From IMG/VR virus record IMGVR_UViG_3300015607_004069, positions 117,659 to 181,658 of that record: a stretch of DNA of 64,000 nucleotides. The stretch is one strand, 5' to 3'. Of this stretch, positions 4,851 to 35,435 are shown in pieces. The stretch is from a virus. Lineage: Duplodnaviria > Caudoviricetes. The position numbers were made by a program, and so were the translations under genes. Under the pieces are notes generated by a model. It had not been told where the DNA came from, searched no databases, and saw nothing but the letters and a program-made list of their open reading frames with translations. Within the stretch, counting starts at the first letter, position 1. Each line of letters begins with the position of its first letter.

Positions 4851-5402
4851 ATGAGTGATCTTCTCAGAGGCATAACCAGAGCAGGTCATGCTGATTTCAA
4901 AAATCCGCAACCACATGCTGCACCCGGTTTTCGAAACCGAGTAAGATTACAAGTTGTCGGTCCAGATGGTAAAGTCAAGAAGACTACACCATGGGTCGAG
5001 AACATCATGTGCACATTCGGCTTGGCCAGTCTTGCATCTATGGTCGGCTCTGGTGCTGGTGTCAATGCCTCCACTCTAATTTCTGCTTGCAAGATTGGTA
5101 CTGGTAACACCGGTGCCACCTCGAATGATACCTCACTGGCCAATTCCACAGGCTCCGTGGTCATCACAGCCGCATCTATGACCAAGACTAATCTTGGCAA
5201 CAGAACAGTTGAATATCAGCATACTTTCGCTTCCAACAATCCAGCCGGTGCTGCTCAAATTCAAGAAGTGGGCCTTTTCTGTAATAGCACAGCAGACAGC
5301 CAGCTCGCCGCACGAACAGTGCTTACAGGAGCAAATAGCGTCAATAAGGGAGCGAGCGACGTAATCAACCTTTCGTACCAAATCATTTTTACCACAGGCT
5401 AA
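4851..5402 (+). CDS. phage tail/baseplate-associated structural protein
   Basis: pattern EN...G....IGTG......DTSL...IQEVGLF......LAART.....VNK...D.INLSYQI is common in phage tail modules; RBS aaggaaca. Confidence 0.7.
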   Translation: MSDLLRGITRAGHADFKNPQPHAAPGFRNRVRLQVVGPDGKVKKTTPWVENIMCTFGLASLASMVGSGAGVNASTLISACKIGTGNTGATSNDTSLANSTGSVVITAASMTKTNLGNRTVEYQHTFASNNPAGAAQIQEVGLFCNSTADSQLAARTVLTGANSVNKGASDVINLSYQIIFTTG

Positions 5403-5424
5403 TCCTAATAATTAAAACCAAAAT

Positions 5425-5457
5425 GCGATAGCCGAGAATAATTCTCTCGGCTATCGC
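5425..5457 (+). terminator. hairpin closing the structural operon
   Basis: gcgatagccgaga-ataattc-tctcggctatcgc, perfect 13-bp stem. Confidence 0.7.
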
Positions 5458-5651
5458 TGTATATGGTATTAACCAGAATGAGTGAATTAGCGGCGTTGGA
5501 CACTGACACGCAAGCAGTTGGGGAAGAAAGCTCACCGATAAGACCATGCTGACCAAGTGGAGAGCGATAGGTCTAGCAGGTGGAATTCCTGCCTAATTCA
5601 CTTTTGGAGTTCATCGTGATTCGCCGCTACTTCTCGGTTATCGCTGTATAT
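5445..5651 (+). repeat. 20-bp direct repeat pair (5445-5464 and 5632-5651) flanking the tRNA-like RNA
   Basis: tctcggctatcgctgtatat vs tctcggttatcgctgtatat, 19/20 identical. Confidence 0.85.
5481..5602 (+). ncRNA. tRNA-like non-coding RNA with non-canonical central arms
   Basis: terminal stem AGTGAATTAG/CTAATTCACT, D-like arm GCGT-11nt-ACGC, T-like arm GCAGG-TGGAATT-CCTGC, extra stem AGACC/GGTCT; no clear 7-nt anticodon loop. Confidence 0.6.
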
Positions 5652-5921
5652 TTACCCTACTCGCATCAGTTGCTTTAAATTTAGTTTATCAGAAGTGAGG
5701 TCTGGATTGCTCAATACCAATTTAAGCTCCTCATAACCAGATATCATCTCTATCTGCAGCTCCATATCAAGTATTTTCACGACTCTGGGAAACTCTGCAC
5801 TGTTTATTACAATCTTCTCGTTGTTTATAGCAATGTATGGAAATTTGTTTTTATCTAATTTGATGCGGCAATATTCACACTTGTTATCATGTGTTACCTT
5901 CAAGATCGTATTTGTCTTCAT
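5652..5921 (-). CDS. hypothetical protein
   Basis: 89-aa ORF with CxxC. Confidence 0.5.
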   Translation of the reverse strand: MKTNTILKVTHDNKCEYCRIKLDKNKFPYIAINNEKIVINSAEFPRVVKILDMELQIEMISGYEELKLVLSNPDLTSDKLNLKQLMRVG

Positions 5922-6013
5922 GATCTTATCTCTACAAGCATAGGTTGATAATAATCCTCGGCCATCATTATATTTAGTATTAATGAAGCGTGCATTTTGT
6001 ATTAGGAATTACT

Positions 6014-6238
6014 ATGAGCAATATCGGTCGGCTGTTGTTTAATGATGGTAATTCAAATACCAATAGCAATTATCGAACTTGGCGTATTGAAGCAGAAGGC
6101 TATGACTGGTTGATTATTCGAAGATCTGGCGATTTCAATTATCTGCCTGAATTGATCACGTTTAATGATTCCGACTCATTACATCGCCAAGAAATTATAG
6201 ATAAATGGGCCATTCCACCGTCTACAAATTTGATTTGA
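6014..6238 (+). CDS. hypothetical protein
   Basis: ATG after aggaatt RBS. Confidence 0.5.
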   Translation: MSNIGRLLFNDGNSNTNSNYRTWRIEAEGYDWLIIRRSGDFNYLPELITFNDSDSLHRQEIIDKWAIPPSTNLI

Positions 6239-6313
6239 TACTATTTTCGAGCCTTTCCTTTTGATTTTTCTGGGTTCAGAAGCCTTTAAAAGGCCTATGT
6301 GATTTTCTGTCGC

Positions 6314-6715
6314 CTATAACTTAAGTCTGAAAACTTGGCCATGTTCGTCATTGTATAATTCAGCGCCGATCTTTTTCCAGATCTTACTAGTCTGTTCTTT
6401 TCTGTTAGTGTCAGATCTTAATTCTTTAAGATTCAAATTTCTTGCTATATCTATTAACTTTTTGTATAGTGTAGATGCAAACCCTTTACCTTGATATTGA
6501 CTTGCAGTTTTCAGGTCTGATGTGTAACCAATTCCATTCAATGTAGTCAATGTGGTTGATGAAATAGTTCGTTCATTATATTTCAAGCTTACTTCATAAG
6601 TATTGATCGTTCCGGGGCCACAATCGTATTTTGCAGCATCACAAGTGTTAGTTAACTTGACATCTATGGTCAAATCAGACAATATATTATCAGCATTGAT
6701 ATCTGATAAACGCAT
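6314..6715 (-). CDS. GNAT-family acetyltransferase
   Basis: acetyl-CoA motif YQGKGFASTLY and C-terminal SKIWKKIG. Confidence 0.75.
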   Translation of the reverse strand: MRLSDINADNILSDLTIDVKLTNTCDAAKYDCGPGTINTYEVSLKYNERTISSTTLTTLNGIGYTSDLKTASQYQGKGFASTLYKKLIDIARNLNLKELRSDTNRKEQTSKIWKKIGAELYNDEHGQVFRLKL

Positions 6716-6793
6716 ATGTCATTCTCTCCGATTCTGATAAATATTTATCGAAAGACAACAGCCCATATTAGATTCATGCTGCGGAGCACCGTC

Positions 6794-7096
6794 ATGGTTA
6801 CAGTCAAGGAAGAGTCATATGGTTATCGAATAAAATGCAAACCCTGTGGCTATCATTATATTCCAAAAATAGGTAAGCCCGGTGCTAGCTGGTCATTTAA
6901 TAAAAACTTTGAAAAACCAACTTTCACACCATCAGTCAATGAATCGCAGACCTATGAGAATAAAGTCATAAAAAGATGCCATTATGTTTTAACTGATGGT
7001 ATTATGCATTATTGCTCAGATTGCATGCATGAATTAGCTGGGAGGTCTGTGGCTTTAGAACCGTACACTGAAGAAGAATTAAATAGGCCAGAATAA
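6794..7096 (+). CDS. DUF6527-like Cys/His metal-binding protein
   Basis: CxxCxxH...WSFN...PTFTPSV...RCHYVLTDG...YCSDCMHELAG pattern; start moved to ATG after ggag. Confidence 0.7.
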   Translation: MVTVKEESYGYRIKCKPCGYHYIPKIGKPGASWSFNKNFEKPTFTPSVNESQTYENKVIKRCHYVLTDGIMHYCSDCMHELAGRSVALEPYTEEELNRPE

Positions 7097-7159
7097 TTTC
7101 TGCTAACATTTCTTTCCAACAGTATTTCAAATCAGTCACCTACCACAGGAACTTCTGAT

Positions 7160-7453
7160 ATGGTTATCGCAAGCAAGGTCAGTGAGCAATTGACTACTCT
7201 TTTTATTGGCTTGAACGCCGAAGACATCAGAAAGCTTCAAGGCAATACGCCTGTCATGCTCTATCCTGATTCATATTCTGGCTTGCCCAAACAGCTGGCT
7301 GTGGCTATGGTTGGTGGATTAAGTGATCAGGCCATTGTTGACAGTATGATAAAAGCTGGCCTAATTGATCAATCCACTAACATCGACAGAGTGAAAGACA
7401 AGCCTCATGAATCTCAAAATCAAGATGCCAACAGTCAAACTGATAGAATATAA
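7160..7453 (+). CDS. hypothetical protein
   Basis: 97-aa ORF with RBS agga. Confidence 0.6.
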   Translation: MVIASKVSEQLTTLFIGLNAEDIRKLQGNTPVMLYPDSYSGLPKQLAVAMVGGLSDQAIVDSMIKAGLIDQSTNIDRVKDKPHESQNQDANSQTDRI

Positions 7454-9068
7454 GAATTTGCAGGAGTTTGATAAAAGAGGAATCAACATCGGTGTAAGAG
7501 ACGATAAATATTTCACCATTGAATTGGATCAGTTAGACGAAGATCAGTTAAATAGACTTCAAAAAGTATTAGAAAAGCATGCTAAGGACCCTAAAGTTGT
7601 TCCTGTATTGCGTGATTTCAAGCTTTATTTGAATATTGACAAACTGTGCGGCAGTGCCAAATCCACAACTGTCAGCCAATTCTGTGATCTGTTAACGGCT
7701 ACATTACTCAACTTGCCCGGTCACAGGATTTATGAAAGAGATAAAAACACTGGAATGTGGTCCGCCTACTTTGTGCAGTCAGTGAGATATGATGATGGCG
7801 AATCCTTTCGTCAGAAATCCCAGCCGACTACAGAAGTCAAACTGGTCTATCGTGAATTCGGCATGGATTGTACCACGTCTATAACATTCGATTCCAAGGA
7901 ATGCTGTTATATGACCATCAGCGAGGCTCTGAATAAGGCCGGTTATTACCTTGAAACGCCAGAATTACGAAAAGAGTACCTTGAATTTAAAAGCAAATTT
8001 GAGGTCATAGCAGAAGATATTGGTGCCCCATATTTGGCCGATGGGTACGGCTGCACTTTAGACAACTGGCGACATTCCTATATTCCTTTCGCTATGGAAG
8101 GTCAGAAATCGAAAGTCATCTTAGATGTCTTCTTTGAAGTACCACCTACCAAGGAACCTAAGAAATACCAAATAGATTTCTGGTGGAATAAGAAGACTAA
8201 GAGTGAACAGGTCGAGCCAAGTCGAGAGTATAGAGATTCCATTGAAATTCCAACCCATTTCAATGTGATTGTGTTTGATCTAGCCCGATCTGATCGGTTT
8301 AAAACACACATCAATAATCTGACAAAATACAAATTCGATTCGAAGGCTTCAAAGAGGTTGGTGTTACCAGCAGAACAACGGAAATTAATCGACCTGTTGA
8401 TTTCCAAAGACACGAACGCCTTCAAGGATATCGTTTCTGGCAAGTCGGGCGGGACAGTGATGGCCTTGTGTGGCGATGCCGGATTGGGCAAAACATTGAC
8501 TTGTGAGGTAGTTGCTGAATCAGTCCAGAGAGTCTTATACAGTGTTCAATGCTCGCAATTGGGTGTTGAACCGGAGGATCTGGAAAAGAATCTGAGGCTC
8601 GTCTTTGATCGTGCCCACCGCTGGAATGCTATCATACTACTTGATGAAGCTGATGTCTACGTTCAAAAACGTGGTGACAGCCTCAATCTGAATGCTATTG
8701 TTGGTGTATTCCTGAGACTATTAGAATATCATTCTGGCATCATGTTTCTCACTACAAACAGGGCCAGTGATATTGATGATGCCGTTCTTAGTCGATGCGT
8801 GGCTAGAATTGATTATCGCATGCCACAGGCTCAGGAACGTCATGATATCTGGATGTCTCTAATAGGGTCCAATAAGCTGACCATTTCACCAGATGACCTA
8901 GCCAAGCTAGTTGAACTGTCTGATGGAATGAGCGGACGTGACATCAAGAACGTCCTAAGACTAGCACTTTTGTTTAACCCAAAACTCACACCAGAAAGCG
9001 TAGAATATGTCAAGCAATTCAAACCAACGATCACCAAGAGAACGAATAAAGATCGCTTGCATGTCTGA
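7407..9068 (+). CDS. AAA+ ATPase
   Basis: Walker A GDAGLGKT, Walker B ILLDEAD, sensor FLTTNR, Arg finger DDAVLSR, SGRDIKN. Confidence 0.9.
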   Translation: MNLKIKMPTVKLIEYKNLQEFDKRGINIGVRDDKYFTIELDQLDEDQLNRLQKVLEKHAKDPKVVPVLRDFKLYLNIDKLCGSAKSTTVSQFCDLLTATLLNLPGHRIYERDKNTGMWSAYFVQSVRYDDGESFRQKSQPTTEVKLVYREFGMDCTTSITFDSKECCYMTISEALNKAGYYLETPELRKEYLEFKSKFEVIAEDIGAPYLADGYGCTLDNWRHSYIPFAMEGQKSKVILDVFFEVPPTKEPKKYQIDFWWNKKTKSEQVEPSREYRDSIEIPTHFNVIVFDLARSDRFKTHINNLTKYKFDSKASKRLVLPAEQRKLIDLLISKDTNAFKDIVSGKSGGTVMALCGDAGLGKTLTCEVVAESVQRVLYSVQCSQLGVEPEDLEKNLRLVFDRAHRWNAIILLDEADVYVQKRGDSLNLNAIVGVFLRLLEYHSGIMFLTTNRASDIDDAVLSRCVARIDYRMPQAQERHDIWMSLIGSNKLTISPDDLAKLVELSDGMSGRDIKNVLRLALLFNPKLTPESVEYVKQFKPTITKRTNKDRLHV

Positions 9069-9708
9069 TCTCCATGGGTATCTGATTGAGCATGATCTTA
9101 TTCCAGATTGTGACCTACTTATTCTAGCAGGCGATCTGTGCTATCACCATGACGATTATGGTTGGTATATTCGTGATTTTGGAAGATGGCTTGAGAAGCT
9201 ATCCAGACGAATGAAAATCATAGGAGTAGCAGGCAATCATGATTTCATGTTTCAGAATATCAATGAATGTGACCCTGAATATGTTGATCTTGTAAAGGCA
9301 TTGCCATGGACCTACTTGCAGGACGGTGGTACCACCTTTAAAGGATGGAATATCTATGGCACACCATGGCAACCGACATTCTATTCGTGGGCTTTTAATG
9401 CTGAAGAAGACGAATTGGCTAAGAAATGGGCTAAAATTCCTGAAGAAACTAGTATTTTAGTCCTGCATGGACCGCCTTTTGGATTTGGCGATATTAATCC
9501 GAAAGGTGAGCATGTCGGCTCGCGAACTTTGGAACATAAGATAGCTCAATTACATCGTCATTTGAAGCTGGCTGTTTTTGGCCATATCCACTCCGGACAC
9601 GGCACATACAGGCATTCATCGGGTACACTGCTAATAAACGCCTCTTTGGTCGATGAAAAATATCGTTTGGTCAACGGTCCGACTGTTGTTGAGTTGTCAG
9701 GGGAATAA
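9007..9708 (+). CDS. metallophosphoesterase (calcineurin-like)
   Basis: SDLHG, AGD, GNHD, HGPP, GHIH motifs; exact start uncertain. Confidence 0.9.
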   Translation: MSSNSNQRSPRERIKIACMSDLHGYLIEHDLIPDCDLLILAGDLCYHHDDYGWYIRDFGRWLEKLSRRMKIIGVAGNHDFMFQNINECDPEYVDLVKALPWTYLQDGGTTFKGWNIYGTPWQPTFYSWAFNAEEDELAKKWAKIPEETSILVLHGPPFGFGDINPKGEHVGSRTLEHKIAQLHRHLKLAVFGHIHSGHGTYRHSSGTLLINASLVDEKYRLVNGPTVVELSGE

Positions 9709-9709
9709 A

Positions 9710-9937
9710 ATGGGGCCTATTATCGTTAACGCATCCGGACAAGCTGATGTTCGTTGTGCCTACTGTAAGAAGCCAATCACTAAAAGGCAGTGGATTGGCT
9801 TTATTGATAGTTCCAGACAGTGCAGCCGCCTGTGGTGCAGGCTCTGGTCTGGTCATTGGCTCTGGATGAACTTCAGAAGACGAATCGTATGGGAAAAGAA
9901 GACATTTTCGATTAATTATCCGACTATCAGACGTTAG
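9710..9937 (+). CDS. hypothetical Cys/Trp-rich protein
   Basis: CxxC..CxxxxC; follows previous stop. Confidence 0.45.
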   Translation: MGPIIVNASGQADVRCAYCKKPITKRQWIGFIDSSRQCSRLWCRLWSGHWLWMNFRRRIVWEKKTFSINYPTIRR

Positions 9938-10638
9938 TGGATCAGCTGATAGGCCAATGGACGAAGCTGATTAAATATGGTCTTGTCTCTTACGAAATTC
10001 ATAAATTCGATATATTTTATAATAGTGAAGGGAGGAATAGGTATAATATTTTCTATCAAATCATCAAAGCCATCAAATTCGAATTTCTGTGCTAGTACGT
10101 CCATGGTTTGCTTAGCTGCCTTCACTTCCTTTTGAGTAGCACTGCTATTATAGACTCGAAGAAATAATTCCGCTATGCCGTCTGACATCTTTTTGCCCGT
10201 CTTCTGATTGCGATAGGAGCCAATATAGGGATAAATTCCTGCGTTCAACTTGTATACCACTGGATCATAAATTTTATGAATGCCGCTCCATATATAATCG
10301 ATTATATCATCACGTCTATACCAGTCAGGCGAACCCGGCTCTATGAAGACAATGGTGTCTTTTAGACCGTACTCGTTATCATAAATAAAGCATCGATCTG
10401 GCTGGTGATTTGGTTTGGTTTTGATTAGTTCTTTGAGATTCCACTTGAACAAGTTGAACATGATTTTGTCAGTAGGATCTAATAGCTCTTGATCTTGCTC
10501 GCAGAATTCAATGAATTGATCCCATGTCTTGGCTTCATTCTTATGATAATCGAAAATAGCATCCCAATTGATAGCTGGATCATCCTCCTGTAAATCCGTG
10601 AAACCATAGCCGATAACTTTAGTAAGCCTATTTCCCAT
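9934..10638 (-). CDS. hypothetical protein
   Basis: 234-aa ORF with protein-like composition. Confidence 0.7.
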   Translation of the reverse strand: MGNRLTKVIGYGFTDLQEDDPAINWDAIFDYHKNEAKTWDQFIEFCEQDQELLDPTDKIMFNLFKWNLKELIKTKPNHQPDRCFIYDNEYGLKDTIVFIEPGSPDWYRRDDIIDYIWSGIHKIYDPVVYKLNAGIYPYIGSYRNQKTGKKMSDGIAELFLRVYNSSATQKEVKAAKQTMDVLAQKFEFDGFDDLIENIIPIPPFTIIKYIEFMNFVRDKTIFNQLRPLAYQLIH

Positions 10639-10662
10639 TTAGCATTTTCCCGATGTGCTGTG

Positions 10663-10674
10663 GTATTACAATAC
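10663..10674. promoter_or_regulatory. face-to-face GTATT/AATAC motifs between divergent genes
   Basis: gtattacaatac between 9934..10638(-) and 10692(+). Confidence 0.5.
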
Positions 10675-10691
10675 TATTCATAGGAGATCAT

Positions 10692-11693
10692 ATGAAATAT
10701 AACGAATTCGAATGTACCTACCATTTCGTCAACAGGTACTGCAAGGCCACAGGGGTGAAACAGCATGAGAAACCATTGGAATTTTATAATAGGCATCTAT
10801 TGGATATCGCCCAGAATCTGAAGGAATTTGGCGATGATGGCGAGATCATTTTCAATCAGGCATCGTTCGAACAGATATGGTGGAAAATCGGCAGGCCGTA
10901 TTACCGCTTTCATCCGGCAGCGGCTAAGCTTTTCGCAAATACACGCCTAGATGTACCAGTAAAATATCTGAAGTTCCCTAGTCGCGTCTTCGTGATCAAT
11001 TTCAGCGAAAACGATCCCAGCATGAAATTGGATGACAAGCATTATGTCAAATCAGTTCTGGTTTATCGTGGTCTGTCTACCAACATTCAAAAGAATACCA
11101 GTACTGAAGCCTTCACTATTTATCTCGATATCGGTGAAATCTATTCTGCTGAAATCAATGGAGTCACTGTTACCTTACCATTGCTGACCTTCAGACAGTT
11201 GTTTTGGACTCTTGAAACAGAAGACCAGACACTAGAAGAAATCATGTGTAAACTGCCAGTCCATCCTTCTGCTTTGCAGGGTGTCATTATTTCCGAAGAG
11301 ATGCTTATAAAATGCTATCGGCTTATTGTTTCTATGGCCTTTCTCAAGCAGGATGAAAATCCTATCATCATACCGCATGTTCTGAGCAAGGACTCGGATG
11401 AATGGCATAGGGCTGATAAGACAAGGAAGGAACAACTAGAAAAGAAAGCTATCAGAGTCAGAGAAAGCGAAGGTTGGCTGGTCGGGCATGATGAAATGTT
11501 TGAAATGGGTAAGATCGGCAAAGCGATGCCGGGCCAGCCTTCAGAATGCACAGGACGCGAGCATATGTTTGCTCGTTTTGTGACAGGCCATTGGAAGCTG
11601 GTTCGATATGGTCCACAGAGGGAATTCGGCAGGGTTCGCTGGATTATGCCTTATATCTCTGGAGAGGGCAAGCCATTTAAACATGATGATTAA
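10692..11693 (+). CDS. phage hypothetical protein with C-terminal GHW...YG...WI.P motif
   Basis: RFVTGHWKLVRYGPQREFGRVRWIMPY resembles a recurrent phage C-terminal motif; RBS taggag. Confidence 0.7.
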   Translation: MKYNEFECTYHFVNRYCKATGVKQHEKPLEFYNRHLLDIAQNLKEFGDDGEIIFNQASFEQIWWKIGRPYYRFHPAAAKLFANTRLDVPVKYLKFPSRVFVINFSENDPSMKLDDKHYVKSVLVYRGLSTNIQKNTSTEAFTIYLDIGEIYSAEINGVTVTLPLLTFRQLFWTLETEDQTLEEIMCKLPVHPSALQGVIISEEMLIKCYRLIVSMAFLKQDENPIIIPHVLSKDSDEWHRADKTRKEQLEKKAIRVRESEGWLVGHDEMFEMGKIGKAMPGQPSECTGREHMFARFVTGHWKLVRYGPQREFGRVRWIMPYISGEGKPFKHDD

Positions 11694-12018
11694 TTATCTG
11701 GCTGGTAACGAGATAACGTATTGTCTCGTCATGGGCACTCAGACATGAGCATCCAAATCATATGGGCTTCTGATACAATCGAAGCATCCATGGGAGTCAC
11801 CACAATTCCCCAAACCCAAAGCGAGAGCAAAATTGTGGCCTTTCTGCCGTTGTAGGAACAGCGGCGCGGTCCATTGTCAGTTGAGCCGTATGATTCAACT
11901 GGACGTTGTAGGCACTGACGAATAGTGCCTCGTCGCCGGTCTTCCAGACGTACCAAGACCCGTGTTGTCTCAGCGCATCAGACACGCTTATGGTTTTGAG
12001 CGAATCAAAACTGGCCAT

Positions 12019-12058
12019 TGATGACCAGACACCATTACGGATGTCTGGTCATCATTTT
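12019..12058 (+). terminator. intrinsic terminator
   Basis: tgatgaccagaca/tgtctggtcatca 13-bp stem followed by tttt. Confidence 0.7.
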
Positions 12059-12077
12059 ATCCATTAAGGAATGACAT

Positions 12078-12308
12078 ATGAGATATACAAAGAACCAACT
12101 GGAATTCATGATCCAAAAGGCGGTGGCACAACGAGTTCGCAACCGTCGATTCCGCAGCTGCCTGTTGTTCACTTCATGCGTGACAGCAGCATTGTTATTC
12201 GGGACTTACTATCCGGACAATGTTAAGTCAGGCATTGCAAAAGCTGGCGAATACGCTAACCTAGGCTGGTTACAGACCAAGACGTTTCTGGCGAGCCTGT
12301 TCTCATAA
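12078..12308 (+). CDS. small membrane protein
   Basis: basic N-terminus then one hydrophobic segment; RBS aagga. Confidence 0.6.
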   Translation: MRYTKNQLEFMIQKAVAQRVRNRRFRSCLLFTSCVTAALLFGTYYPDNVKSGIAKAGEYANLGWLQTKTFLASLFS

Positions 12309-12325
12309 CGAAAGTGATGTGATCT

Positions 12326-12826
12326 GTGGAAGTCTTTGAAATTCATATTACCGGTGATGAATCCATACTGAAGAACGGCATGCAATTGGGTGTTAAGACC
12401 ATTGCTGTCGATCTTCTTAAACCAGATAAGAGCATCCTTCGATCAGAATATATGACTTCACATATTGCGAAGTTTAATAACTTCCAAGACTGTGTAAAAT
12501 TCGTCGATGGTTTATCGCACCAGTTAGAACAGATGGGAACCAAGATCATTCGAAAGAAAATCGAGTGCCCACCTTATCAGCACTACCTCAATTCTAGTCT
12601 TTATATGGAAAGCCACTTTAAATTATCTCTTGATGCCACACCTAATTTTCCTATTAGTAGGAATCAAAATAAGGACTATCTACTTGGGACTGACCGTACT
12701 TATGACAAATCTGATTATAAGCGTTTTCATGATGCCCATCAGGATGATGAACTGGAATTGTGCTTGTATGATTCCTTCATAGATGAAGACCTAGACTGGT
12801 TATCACTTCCTCGGCATTCATTATAA
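12326..12826 (+). CDS. hypothetical protein (FEIHIT...KIE...YMESH pattern)
   Basis: 166-aa ORF in operon. Confidence 0.65.
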   Translation: MEVFEIHITGDESILKNGMQLGVKTIAVDLLKPDKSILRSEYMTSHIAKFNNFQDCVKFVDGLSHQLEQMGTKIIRKKIECPPYQHYLNSSLYMESHFKLSLDATPNFPISRNQNKDYLLGTDRTYDKSDYKRFHDAHQDDELELCLYDSFIDEDLDWLSLPRHSL

Positions 12827-12838
12827 AGGCGATATTCG

Positions 12839-13162
12839 ATGGCTAATGAAAAAGATCAGGAACTCACTCCGTTAACTGAAGCTGAATTTGAATTAGTAAA
12901 GGAAGAATTTAGAAGACTTGATCGTCTGCGTATAGAGAACAGACCTCCGCCACAGGGAGAGTACCAATGGGATGGCGGATTAAGTTTCAATGGTGGTTTC
13001 GGATCATATCAAGCGTTATATTATAATGGTAAGAAAATAGGTGGCTTGTTTACTGATAAACCATATACTGGTGAATATAGACCATTTAGTGAAGACGGTG
13101 GCGTATGTAAACCATGTGATCCGCCTGTTACACACACTCCATTTGCTGGAATGACCATATGA
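12839..13162 (+). CDS. hypothetical protein
   Basis: ATGA coupling to the next gene. Confidence 0.55.
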   Translation: MANEKDQELTPLTEAEFELVKEEFRRLDRLRIENRPPPQGEYQWDGGLSFNGGFGSYQALYYNGKKIGGLFTDKPYTGEYRPFSEDGGVCKPCDPPVTHTPFAGMTI

Positions 13163-13584
13163 ACGTTTATATTGCAGCTCAAGATAAAGAACAAGCATTA
13201 GATATTCGAGCAATGCTTTTTGATAATGCTAAAGATGTTGAATTTTCATGCCGCTGGCTCGATCAGGATTTCAAACGCACATTGACCTACACTGAAGAAG
13301 AACGAAACGTCATCGCCACCCAATGTTATGAGGACATAGATAAGTGTGATGTTCTTATCCTGCTTGCCTCTGATAACAAGATGAAGTGCTCTGGAGGTAA
13401 GTTCGTAGAGGCAGGGTATGCTCTCGGTCAAAATAAGGATGTTATCATTCTAGGTCAGCCGGAAAACATGCTCTTGTGGGCGAGAAAGAATATTAAAGCA
13501 GTTCAAACAATATCACAATTATTATCAAATATCAATGCACTCAGTGAATCTCATAGAATCCGGAATGCTGAGCTTAACGCGTAG
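13159..13584 (+). CDS. nucleoside 2-deoxyribosyltransferase-like protein
   Basis: VYIAA...EDIDKCDVLIL...SGGKFVEAGYALGQNKDVII. Confidence 0.75.
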   Translation: MNVYIAAQDKEQALDIRAMLFDNAKDVEFSCRWLDQDFKRTLTYTEEERNVIATQCYEDIDKCDVLILLASDNKMKCSGGKFVEAGYALGQNKDVIILGQPENMLLWARKNIKAVQTISQLLSNINALSESHRIRNAELNA

Positions 13585-13777
13585 AATCTGACGATTGGTT
13601 TTTATCTGACTGGATACATAAGTTAATAAATATCGCAACAATGCCAATTCCTAATAACGCACCGGAAGCGACGAGGTTATTTCCGTGAATGCCCTCAAAC
13701 AAGGTGTTGATATAGATAGTCAATAGAAAGAAAGCTGCCCAGACAACACAGACCAAATTGATAGCTGATTTAGCCAT
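13574..13777 (-). CDS. small two-TM membrane protein
   Basis: two hydrophobic helices. Confidence 0.55.
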   Translation of the reverse strand: MAKSAINLVCVVWAAFFLLTIYINTLFEGIHGNNLVASGALLGIGIVAIFINLCIQSDKNQSSDSTR

Positions 13778-13856
13778 ATTATTTTCCTAATGGTTGGAAT
13801 TAGATAATACATTATCTGCTAGTACATACTTTAAACCATGTCCTACAGGATGAACT

Positions 13857-15458
13857 ATGAATACTATGTTTCATAATGCCAGAGTTTCTTTTGCTATCTG
13901 CACACCCATGGCGAAAGTGACCAATCCTCATGGCGTGTTGATGTTCGACACATTGACACCGGAATGGCATAGAGCACGAGCCAGTCTAGCCATGCCTACC
14001 AACATCAATCTGGTAGAACTTTTAGCCGATGGTATGGAAGTCGGCGATGCCCGTTCAAAGATCGCCAAACTGTGTCTGGAAAGCAAACCAATACCAGAAT
14101 TCTTATTCTTCTTAGATTCTGACGTTATCGTCCCATCAGATGCCTTGACCAAACTATTTTACAATGCCAGATGTTATCCAGACTACGATGTCTATGCTGG
14201 CGTTTATTGCTCTAAGACCAATCCACCAGAACCATTGATCTATGGAGACAATGGCACAGGAGCCATCTGGGATTGGGCAGTAGGCGATCTGCTCATGGAC
14301 GGCAGAGTGAAAAGCGTCCATATGGGTCTGACACTGATTAGAACCAGTGCCTTCCGGAAGCTTCTGGATTCTGGCCTTGTCCATGGTACAGGGGATGACC
14401 AAGAAGACGAGCCGTTCTTCAAAACAGTCAATGAGACTGAATTTGTCAATGGCAATAACCTGCTCAAGCGAGGAACAGAGGACATTTACTTCTGTGATAA
14501 GCTTATAAAGGCTGGCGGCAAAATATTCGTCAATACCGGAGTGTTAGCCGCCCATCACTGTCGGACCACAGGCATAATGTATGGTCTTCCGGTCGATAAG
14601 ACCAATAACCCATTTAGACGCGCCAAATGGATGAAGGATGGCGACAAGACTCAGGATGTTCAGGAAGCCGAGAATCTGATCTACGAAGGGCCTTGTGAAT
14701 GTGTCAAATATCTGACTAATGAAACGGAATTTCCAGAACAATATAAGCAGCTGGACAATTCAACGCTTTGCCTTGAAAATTGCGTTGACTGTAAAGGCAC
14801 TGGCCATGTCAAAAGGCCATATAAGATAGCTATCGATATTGGAGCCGGTGATACGCGCAGAGAATGGCCGGGTTATAAGACTTACACTACTGATATTCGT
14901 AGCGATTCCAAGCCTGATTATGTTCAGGATTCACGTGCTCTAACGCTGCCAAATAACCATTTTGATCTAGTGGCAAGCTCACACCATCTAGAGCATATTG
15001 GCCGATGGGATCAGGAAAAAGTCTGGAAGGAAATGTTTAAAATCTGCAAGCCCGGTGGCAGAATTGAGCATGTCGTTCCTAATATACAATGGGCCGCTGC
15101 CTCCATTATGGAGAACAACATAGACGAGCACGTCATGAATGTCATTTATGGAGCACAGGAGGCTCATGGATATGCTCGTGAATTCAATACTCATTTCTTC
15201 GGCTATACCCCTGAGTTAGCTAAGGCACTGGCAAGATCAGTCGGATTCGTTGATGTAGAAACTGGAGACTGGCGACAGAATCCCAAGTTAGGTTATAACC
15301 TCCTGATAAAAGGTCGTAAGCCTTATCCCGATGAAGTAGTCAAAGACACAGTAGTCATGAAAGCCAGAAAACAGGAAGAAAAGGATAAAAAGAAAGAAAA
15401 AGAGCCAGAAAAAACAGATCAGAAACCAAGCCGGTCCAGAAGATCAGCAGCAAAATAA
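13857..15458 (+). CDS. GT-A fold glycosyltransferase fused to class I SAM-dependent methyltransferase
   Basis: FFLDSD (DxD), GLTLIR, EDIYFC in the N-half; IDIGAG, SHHLEH, CKPGGRI in the C-half; Cys-rich linker. Confidence 0.85.
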   Translation: MNTMFHNARVSFAICTPMAKVTNPHGVLMFDTLTPEWHRARASLAMPTNINLVELLADGMEVGDARSKIAKLCLESKPIPEFLFFLDSDVIVPSDALTKLFYNARCYPDYDVYAGVYCSKTNPPEPLIYGDNGTGAIWDWAVGDLLMDGRVKSVHMGLTLIRTSAFRKLLDSGLVHGTGDDQEDEPFFKTVNETEFVNGNNLLKRGTEDIYFCDKLIKAGGKIFVNTGVLAAHHCRTTGIMYGLPVDKTNNPFRRAKWMKDGDKTQDVQEAENLIYEGPCECVKYLTNETEFPEQYKQLDNSTLCLENCVDCKGTGHVKRPYKIAIDIGAGDTRREWPGYKTYTTDIRSDSKPDYVQDSRALTLPNNHFDLVASSHHLEHIGRWDQEKVWKEMFKICKPGGRIEHVVPNIQWAAASIMENNIDEHVMNVIYGAQEAHGYAREFNTHFFGYTPELAKALARSVGFVDVETGDWRQNPKLGYNLLIKGRKPYPDEVVKDTVVMKARKQEEKDKKKEKEPEKTDQKPSRSRRSAAK

Positions 15459-35337: not shown

Positions 35338-35435
35338 GTAAGATGCCAGACTGCCCACCTTTAGTAAGGATGGCATGGAGAGGTTAGCGCAAATCCCCTC
35401 ACTGACCACGCACTAATATGGTCCCGGCATCTTAC
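35338..35435 (-). ncRNA. structured RNA candidate: four-way junction with complementary loops
   Basis: closing stem of 12-13 bp plus three hairpins in a non-coding gap; G-U pairs favour the minus strand; GTATT 9 nt upstream. Confidence 0.6.

Follow-up and report, generated by a model that had tools for sequence, protein, structure and literature searches.

A non-coding unit between terminator-derived direct repeats at the edge of a huge-phage gene island: a possible insert at a PeSL-like module junction

A 187-bp unit in an uncultured, huge, soil-type phage, composed of a 167-bp core and one of the two direct repeats flanking it, may well be a non-coding insert, or the relic of one, within a bidirectional terminator. 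The first-pass annotation had described the unit as a promoter-plus-RNA cassette encoding a tRNA mimic, and none of the tests that could be applied showed the insert to be a tRNA look-alike RNA. The whole stretch of DNA analysed (the window, 64,000 nucleotides) is the final 64 kb of a 181,658-bp viral record that is about 51% complete and is therefore a fragment of a huge phage. The G+C content across the record is 43%, and the sole tRNA that ARAGORN finds in it (Arg-TCT) lies far from the insert. The features of the locus, in window coordinates, are as follows.

4851-5402, plus strand: tail-fibre-like gene (183 aa), which closes the conserved block lying left of the insert
5425-5457 (arms 5425-5437 and 5445-5457), both strands considered: hairpin T1
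5445-5464, plus strand: direct repeat copy 1 (DR1), the 3' arm of T1 plus TGTATAT
5465-5631: insert core, 167 bp, non-coding
5481-5602, plus strand: predicted five-helix 'tRNA-like' fold
5484-5495 with 5622-5633 (span 5484-5633): competing long-range helix, 11 of 12 positions paired
5632-5651, plus strand: direct repeat copy 2 (DR2), with a single C-to-T difference from copy 1
5652-5921, minus strand: 89-aa ORFan, convergent with the fibre gene
5945-5983, plus strand: degenerate module copy 3, ahead of a small gene at 6015-6238
5403-13856: lineage-specific island of 8.45 kb with mostly orphan genes, the insert forming its left edge
11699-12058: leader RNA inside the island
13857-15458, plus strand: methyltransferase-domain gene, conserved in relatives as the next gene to the right of the fibre gene

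The direct repeats are real and specific to this locus. DR1 and DR2 agree at 19 of 20 positions (longest exact overlap, 13 nt), no such pair of repeats arose in 100 shuffles of the window, and the rest of the 181-kb record holds no further copy with up to four mismatches. DR1 consists of the 3' arm of T1 plus seven further bases, which bears out the earlier proposal that the repeats derive from the upstream terminator. T1 is a strong hairpin (13 bp, 7-nt loop, -24.4 kcal/mol) that stands well apart from shuffled sequence on both the plus strand (z -5.9) and the minus strand (z -8.5). On the minus strand it is called as a strong intrinsic terminator with the T-rich tail ATTTTGGTTT at 5424-5415; on the plus strand the hairpin lacks a good T-run and has too few T to be called a terminator. 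DR2 has no significant hairpin partner (z -0.7) and adjoins the stop codon of the minus-strand 89-aa gene.

The repeats belong to a terminator/promoter module present in three copies in total, all of them at this locus within 560 bp, in the order module, core, half-module, ORFan, module. Copy 1 has the strong hairpin but a poor -35 element and a 20-nt spacer, and copy 2 is a 20-nt half consisting of the 3' arm alone. Copy 3 (5946-5983 in the alignment) is identical to 5434-5472 at 29 of 39 positions, a score equalled in none of 2000 shuffles. It has lost the hairpin and carries a sigma-70-like promoter (TTGATA, 18 nt, TATATT, then GTATTAA) that matches at 10 of 12 positions, precedes the gene at 6015-6238 and is the only good promoter of this type at the locus. 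The pattern TATAT-N(1-3)-GTATTAA occurs just twice in 181 kb, at 5460 and 5969. The GTATT motif that had been proposed as the promoter of the RNA is indeed present 10 nt before the stem (5466-5470), but it is part of the repeated module, and a sigma-70 scan found no promoter ahead of the core, where the -35 region is the T1 hairpin itself. Both full module copies are followed by an ATG 12-18 nt past the TATAT box (within 5463-5552 and 5983-6042), opening reading frames of 24-29 aa and about 19 aa, respectively. The surroundings of the two ATGs are loosely alike and neither has a Shine-Dalgarno motif; these short frames may be a coincidence or the remains of a shared leader.

Deleting the core together with one repeat rebuilds an ordinary end for the minus-strand gene, namely a stop codon, 7 nt, a 13-14-bp hairpin and a T-rich tail. 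Of the evidence within the locus, this restored gene end points most clearly to the 187 bp having been inserted into that terminator, or being what is left of something inserted there. The 89-aa gene is encoded on the minus strand, facing the fibre gene, so that its message would have to cross the core and end at T1. As T1 has no T-run on the plus strand, the core would also be read by any run-through from the fibre operon. The insert is most likely transcribed as the 3' UTR of the 89-aa gene and is unlikely to act as an RNA in its own right. It would have been brought in, or left behind, by recombination between short module copies, and the same process would have assembled the 8.45-kb accessory island. 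The insert would then be carried as a 3' untranslated tail of about 230 nt on the 89-aa message, ending at the intact T1, and the P4 hairpin of the core (described below) and the long-range helices would at most buffer the 3' end of that message or damp convergent transcription. The recombination route, the strand that is transcribed and the lack of a dedicated function are inferences.

Related loci place the insert at a site of variable gene content. The fibre gene is assigned to a PHROG tail fibre family (5.7e-9) and is conserved in all related loci; its protein has 147 homologues with identities of up to 91%, and almost all of the closer ones come from Logan assemblies. With an alignment of fibre homologues we recovered 5 syntenic loci from IMG/VR and 13 from metagenomes; the same alignment found no locus in GTDB genomes, and single-protein searches of IMG/VR for syntenic loci returned nothing. 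Ten related loci carry a homologue of the gene at 13857-15458 only 8-1144 nt past the fibre gene, compared with 8454 nt in the window. Since the flanking genes are nearly adjacent in these ten relatives, 5403-13856 is a lineage-specific island. It encodes the 89-aa ORFan, a GNAT protein, a DUF6527 protein, an AAA ATPase, a metallophosphoesterase, a nucleoside deoxyribosyltransferase-like protein and many orphans. A search of 5.8 billion proteins yielded just three homologues of the 89-aa protein, all lacking a Pfam or PHROG match, and the protein of this exact locus was seen on two other contigs. Among close relatives it is 64-73% identical, and the fibre protein is 85-91% identical.

In several relatives the fibre gene is directly followed by a hairpin and a TATAAT-type box. 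Among the relatives that could be read, the closest (L007, 89% identical) shares the post-fibre hairpin, and its contig ends inside it; no empty site has been seen, which counts against the insert reading. One hairpin arm reads GATGGCC in L007 (1112-1168) and GATAGCC/GGCTATC in the window (5403-5457), changes that keep complementarity, with the partner arm in L007 cut off. Module copy 3 of the window has this arm in the L007 form, GGCCATC. Across the relatives, the site is a hot spot for variation in gene content. Together with the rebuilt gene end and the restriction of the module to this locus, this argues for the part of the first-pass annotation that had a cassette gained or lost at the repeats; the promoter-plus-RNA part of that proposal is not supported.

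The closest known parallel is the promoter-early stem-loop (PeSL) of T4-type phages. PeSLs are terminator-plus-promoter modules that flank ORFan cassettes in hyperplastic regions, and recombination between them deletes, circularises and re-inserts those cassettes (Arbiol et al. 2010, PMC2839356; Comeau et al. 2014, PMC4122927). The locus resembles them in that a short module of terminator stem-loop and sigma-70-type -10 box recurs beside small ORFan cassettes in a hyperplastic region. As with PeSLs, recombination between copies would insert or delete the intervening DNA, and neighbouring genes would be kept transcriptionally isolated. Here the copies at 5425-5472, 5632-5651 and 5945-5983 flank the core and the ORFan at the variable edge of the island. 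The hairpin is found only in copy 1 and a credible promoter only in copy 3, so that no single copy combines the two. T4-type phages have dozens of PeSLs, whereas the 181-kb record has three module copies, all of them here. Of the two 'cassettes' at this locus one is geneless, and the genes are convergent, unlike the co-oriented genes at PeSLs. On this comparison, the locus is plausibly a PeSL-like module junction carrying a non-coding insert. The insert reading draws on the locus-unique repeats, the gene end restored by deletion, the third module copy beyond the 89-aa gene, the ten relatives in which the flanking genes are joined, the relatives with a hairpin and a TATAAT-type box, and the PeSL precedent (PMC2839356). 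Three features of the locus count against it in addition to the missing empty site: all three module copies lie at one locus and copy 2 is half a module, a 10-bp inverted repeat as perfect as that in the core is rare in shuffled inserts, and the G+C content of the core is raised. A fourth is that plausible transcript ends (5472-5606) would yield the five-helix fold.

Two other mobile-DNA readings were rejected on geometry and copy number. Like a MITE, the insert is small and non-coding, with inverted repeats and flanking direct repeats. Its inverted repeats, however, are not terminal but set back from the direct repeats by 16 and 29 nt, its 20-bp duplication matches a pre-existing hairpin arm and not a transposase footprint, and it is single-copy. 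An integrase att site was ruled out on the same two grounds.

The core shows no coding capacity. All six frames contain stops, the longest open reading frames are 29 and 55 aa, no Shine-Dalgarno motif precedes the 24/29-aa frame, and tblastx found no paralogue, so that a hidden protein gene was rejected. The G+C content of the core (49-51%) falls in the top 10-16% of intergenic windows, compared with 35% in the adjacent small genes, and resembles that of two other conserved RNAs of the window.

The core is unique within its own genome, with no paralogue elsewhere. DNA searches with a region of 236-301 nt found nothing in GenBank phages, E. coli genomes or five related IMG/VR phage records, and exact-pattern scans with four core pieces in IMG/VR and one in GTDB genomes returned nothing relevant. 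A covariance model built from the single core sequence (R1) recovered only itself in the own genome and nothing in four related records. The 17-nt T-like hairpin alone has 23 matches in IMG/VR, in unrelated contexts. R1 also matched six unrelated phage contigs (L025, L027, L033, L034, L043 and L044) with E-values of 0.002-0.05, in each case without the helices P1, P3 and P4; because these contigs had been chosen for the 17-mer, the matches were rejected as an ascertainment artefact. The six contigs have in common a conserved non-coding stretch of about 80 nt that ends in the 17-nt hairpin followed by a T-run, as in a terminator. In L043 this stretch comes directly after a sequence resembling a tRNA 3' end, where ARAGORN finds no tRNA. 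We judge the 80-nt stretch not to be homologous to the insert.

The helices reported in the first-pass annotation, a 10-bp terminal stem with a T-like and a D-like arm, are all present in the sequence. The terminal stem P1 is perfect (5481-5490 with 5593-5602). The T-like hairpin P5 (5576-5592; 5-bp stem, 7-nt loop TGGAATT) abuts its 3' strand, and the D-like hairpin P2 (5493-5511; 4 bp, 11-nt GG-containing loop) starts two bases past its 5' strand. At minimum energy, 5475-5610 folds into a five-way junction of P1, P2, P3 (5517-5539), P4 (5541-5574) and P5. Whether this fold is predicted depends on the ends of the RNA. For an RNA spanning 5472-5606, pair probabilities of the helices are 0.74-0.98. 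With ends at 5465-5631, 5458-5660 or longer, P1, P2 and P3 drop to 0.01 or less on either strand, and P5 drops to 0.14-0.16 on the minus strand and to 0.01 or less on the plus; 25 extra 3' bases swap the five-helix fold for another helix. P4 is the sole helix that survives all end choices and both strands (probability 0.98). The helix between 5484-5495 and 5622-5633 takes over with a probability of 0.73-0.82 when its 3' partner is transcribed. It uses the 5' strand of P1, so that the two pairings are mutually exclusive and decided only by the transcript end. This second partner of the P1 strand is G+C-rich and lies just before DR2; it could be a chance match, since an 8-bp perfect inverted repeat occurs in 11% of shuffles. 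The proposed tRNA-like topology is thus predicted only for an RNA with ends near 5472-5606.

The stability of the fold is ordinary. Its z-scores against shuffles are -1.98 on the plus strand and -2.75 on the minus strand, and the full-length folds are likewise unremarkable (z -1.4 and -2.2). Among 12,102 windows of 130 nt across this genome, and with G and C content allowed for, the window with the best register falls in the top ~10% on the plus strand and the top ~4% on the minus strand. Perfect 10-bp inverted repeats 60-150 nt apart number 21 genome-wide, equal to shuffled genomes. Inside the 167-nt insert, a 10-bp inverted repeat arises in 42 of 5000 shuffles (0.8%, p = 0.008). As a whole the fold is not above chance, and it is neither robust nor unusually stable. 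Elsewhere in the window, a 98-nt stem-closed RNA at 35338-35435 has a z-score of -3.3 and turned up in the count of distant perfect 10-bp inverted repeats as one of the few located in non-coding DNA.

The insert resembles tRNA and the tRNA-like stable RNAs of phages in that its closing stem stacks on a hairpin with a 5-bp stem and a 7-nt loop, in the 4-bp GG-loop arm two bases past the 5' strand, and in a five-helix order like that of class II tRNAs. It differs in stacking 10+5 pairs (15), where tRNA stacks 7+5 (12). The tRNA T-loop follows the pattern U-U-C-R-A, and two of its positions contact the D loop. In the T-like loop of the insert, UGGAAUU, GG replaces the UC that meets the D loop. 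The middle loop has 13 nt, or 7 nt (AGAAAGC) without U33, and the closing stem is followed by UUUGG, with neither a discriminator base nor CCA; the earlier observation that a canonical anticodon loop and CCA are missing is thus confirmed. The insert also has no score from the tRNA covariance model (RF00005) or ARAGORN, and its tRNA-like fold is not preferred in a longer transcript.

Searches for known RNA classes were negative. ARAGORN called no tRNA at the insert, also with introns allowed; at an 80% threshold it gave only a junk call with mismatched stems. No Rfam 15 family reached the gathering score in the region. At E<=10, on 501 nt and on the 167 nt alone, there was no tRNA, tmRNA, Y RNA, ribozyme or riboswitch, and the only matches were meaningless ones to lncRNAs. 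Retrons, ribozymes and riboswitches were ruled out as classes for want of an Rfam match. YrlA-type bacterial Y RNAs reportedly act with Rsr/Ro60, and the gene for Ro60/Rsr (TROVE) is usually adjacent to the YrlA Y RNA gene. The insert would share with them the character of a non-decoding RNA with a tRNA-like part, but it lacks the long Ro-binding stem with its conserved bulge. A search for TROVE/Ro60 (PF05731) found none at E<=1 in the 181-kb record (~51% complete), with controls detected, in agreement with the earlier remark that no Ro60 gene is visible.

A free-standing small structured RNA of about 130 nt, read from the plus strand, starting after TATATG and ending at TTTT, is an unlikely but living alternative. 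A start about 7 nt past TATATG (5460-5465) and a stop at TTTT (5603-5606) would give exactly the ends at which all helices reach 0.74-0.98, and this keeps the alternative alive. The helices would then run in the class II tRNA order of closing stem, D-like, middle, long extra and T-like arm, with class-II-like linkers (2 nt before the D-like arm and 0 nt from the T-like arm to the closing stem). By the general rules for T-loops, positions 1, 4 and 5 are retained in the T-like loop. The significance of the 10-bp stem within the insert (p = 0.008), the raised G+C content and the presence of other conserved orphan RNAs in the window, such as the one at 35338-35435, also favour a small RNA. Against it, no promoter is called, the -35 region is a hairpin, the TGTATAT box of copy 2 would fire antisense into the 89-aa gene, and just four T follow a weak, A/T-rich long-range stem. 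The negative tRNA, tmRNA and Y RNA models and ARAGORN runs, the 15 stacked pairs, the absent U33 and CCA, the GG at the D-loop-contact positions, the ordinary stability, the lack of a Ro60 gene in the record and the lack of any homologue weigh against it further. An insert is preferred over a dedicated RNA on the grounds that there is no tRNA or Rfam match, no paralogue in the genome and no homologue in the collections searched, that the fold depends on the ends and that its stability is ordinary.

The core might instead act in cis as a spacer between the convergent genes, either as a plus-strand stop or as a minus-strand 3'-end stabiliser, which we regard as comparably improbable. The hairpin at 5576-5592, or the long stem with T-rich sequence, would stop run-through from a heavily transcribed fibre operon that T1 could not halt, and the 89-aa gene would be shielded from antisense transcription. 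The convergent gene geometry fits, T1 is called as a terminator on the minus strand only, and a plus-strand terminator-like site is called at 5578-5594 with the tail AATTCACTTT. That site is a weak one, with three G-C pairs among its 6 and a gap of 10 nt between hairpin and T-run. Calls of terminator-like sites in the stretch exceed those in shuffles only modestly (4 vs 1.4 +/- 1.2), and there is no sign of selection for such a role.

In its strongest form, the small-RNA alternative would make the core a tRNA-shaped decoy, as the first-pass annotation had suggested, or the partner of a protein that binds tRNA. With ARAGORN and Rfam negative, the geometry off and the fold neither robust nor unusually stable, a true tRNA mimic is very improbable. 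A lineage-restricted small RNA gene, moving between terminator modules as a promoter-less mini-cassette, folded like a class II tRNA into a five-helix junction with a re-coded T-loop/D-loop contact and serving as a decoy for or partner of a host or phage tRNA-binding factor, seems just as remote. An assembly artefact, in which a foreign or strain-variant fragment was joined at a short repeat, would suit an uncultured-virus contig that is about 51% complete and a repeat length of 20 near the k-mer overlap, but it is highly unlikely, as the repeats differ at one base, their longest exact overlap (13 nt) is below usual k-mers, the 89-aa protein of the locus recurs on two other contigs, and a third, diverged module copy suits evolution and not misjoining.

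If the non-coding insert reading is true, the locus would be a further case of gene islands growing at short terminator/promoter modules, in which the 'cargo' of recombination is itself non-coding, a result that would be useful for annotation and unsurprising. If the core instead proved to be a conserved RNA, it would join at least two orphan structured RNAs of the window at the borders of swappable cassettes, hinting that RNA elements serve this phage lineage as the boundaries of cassettes.
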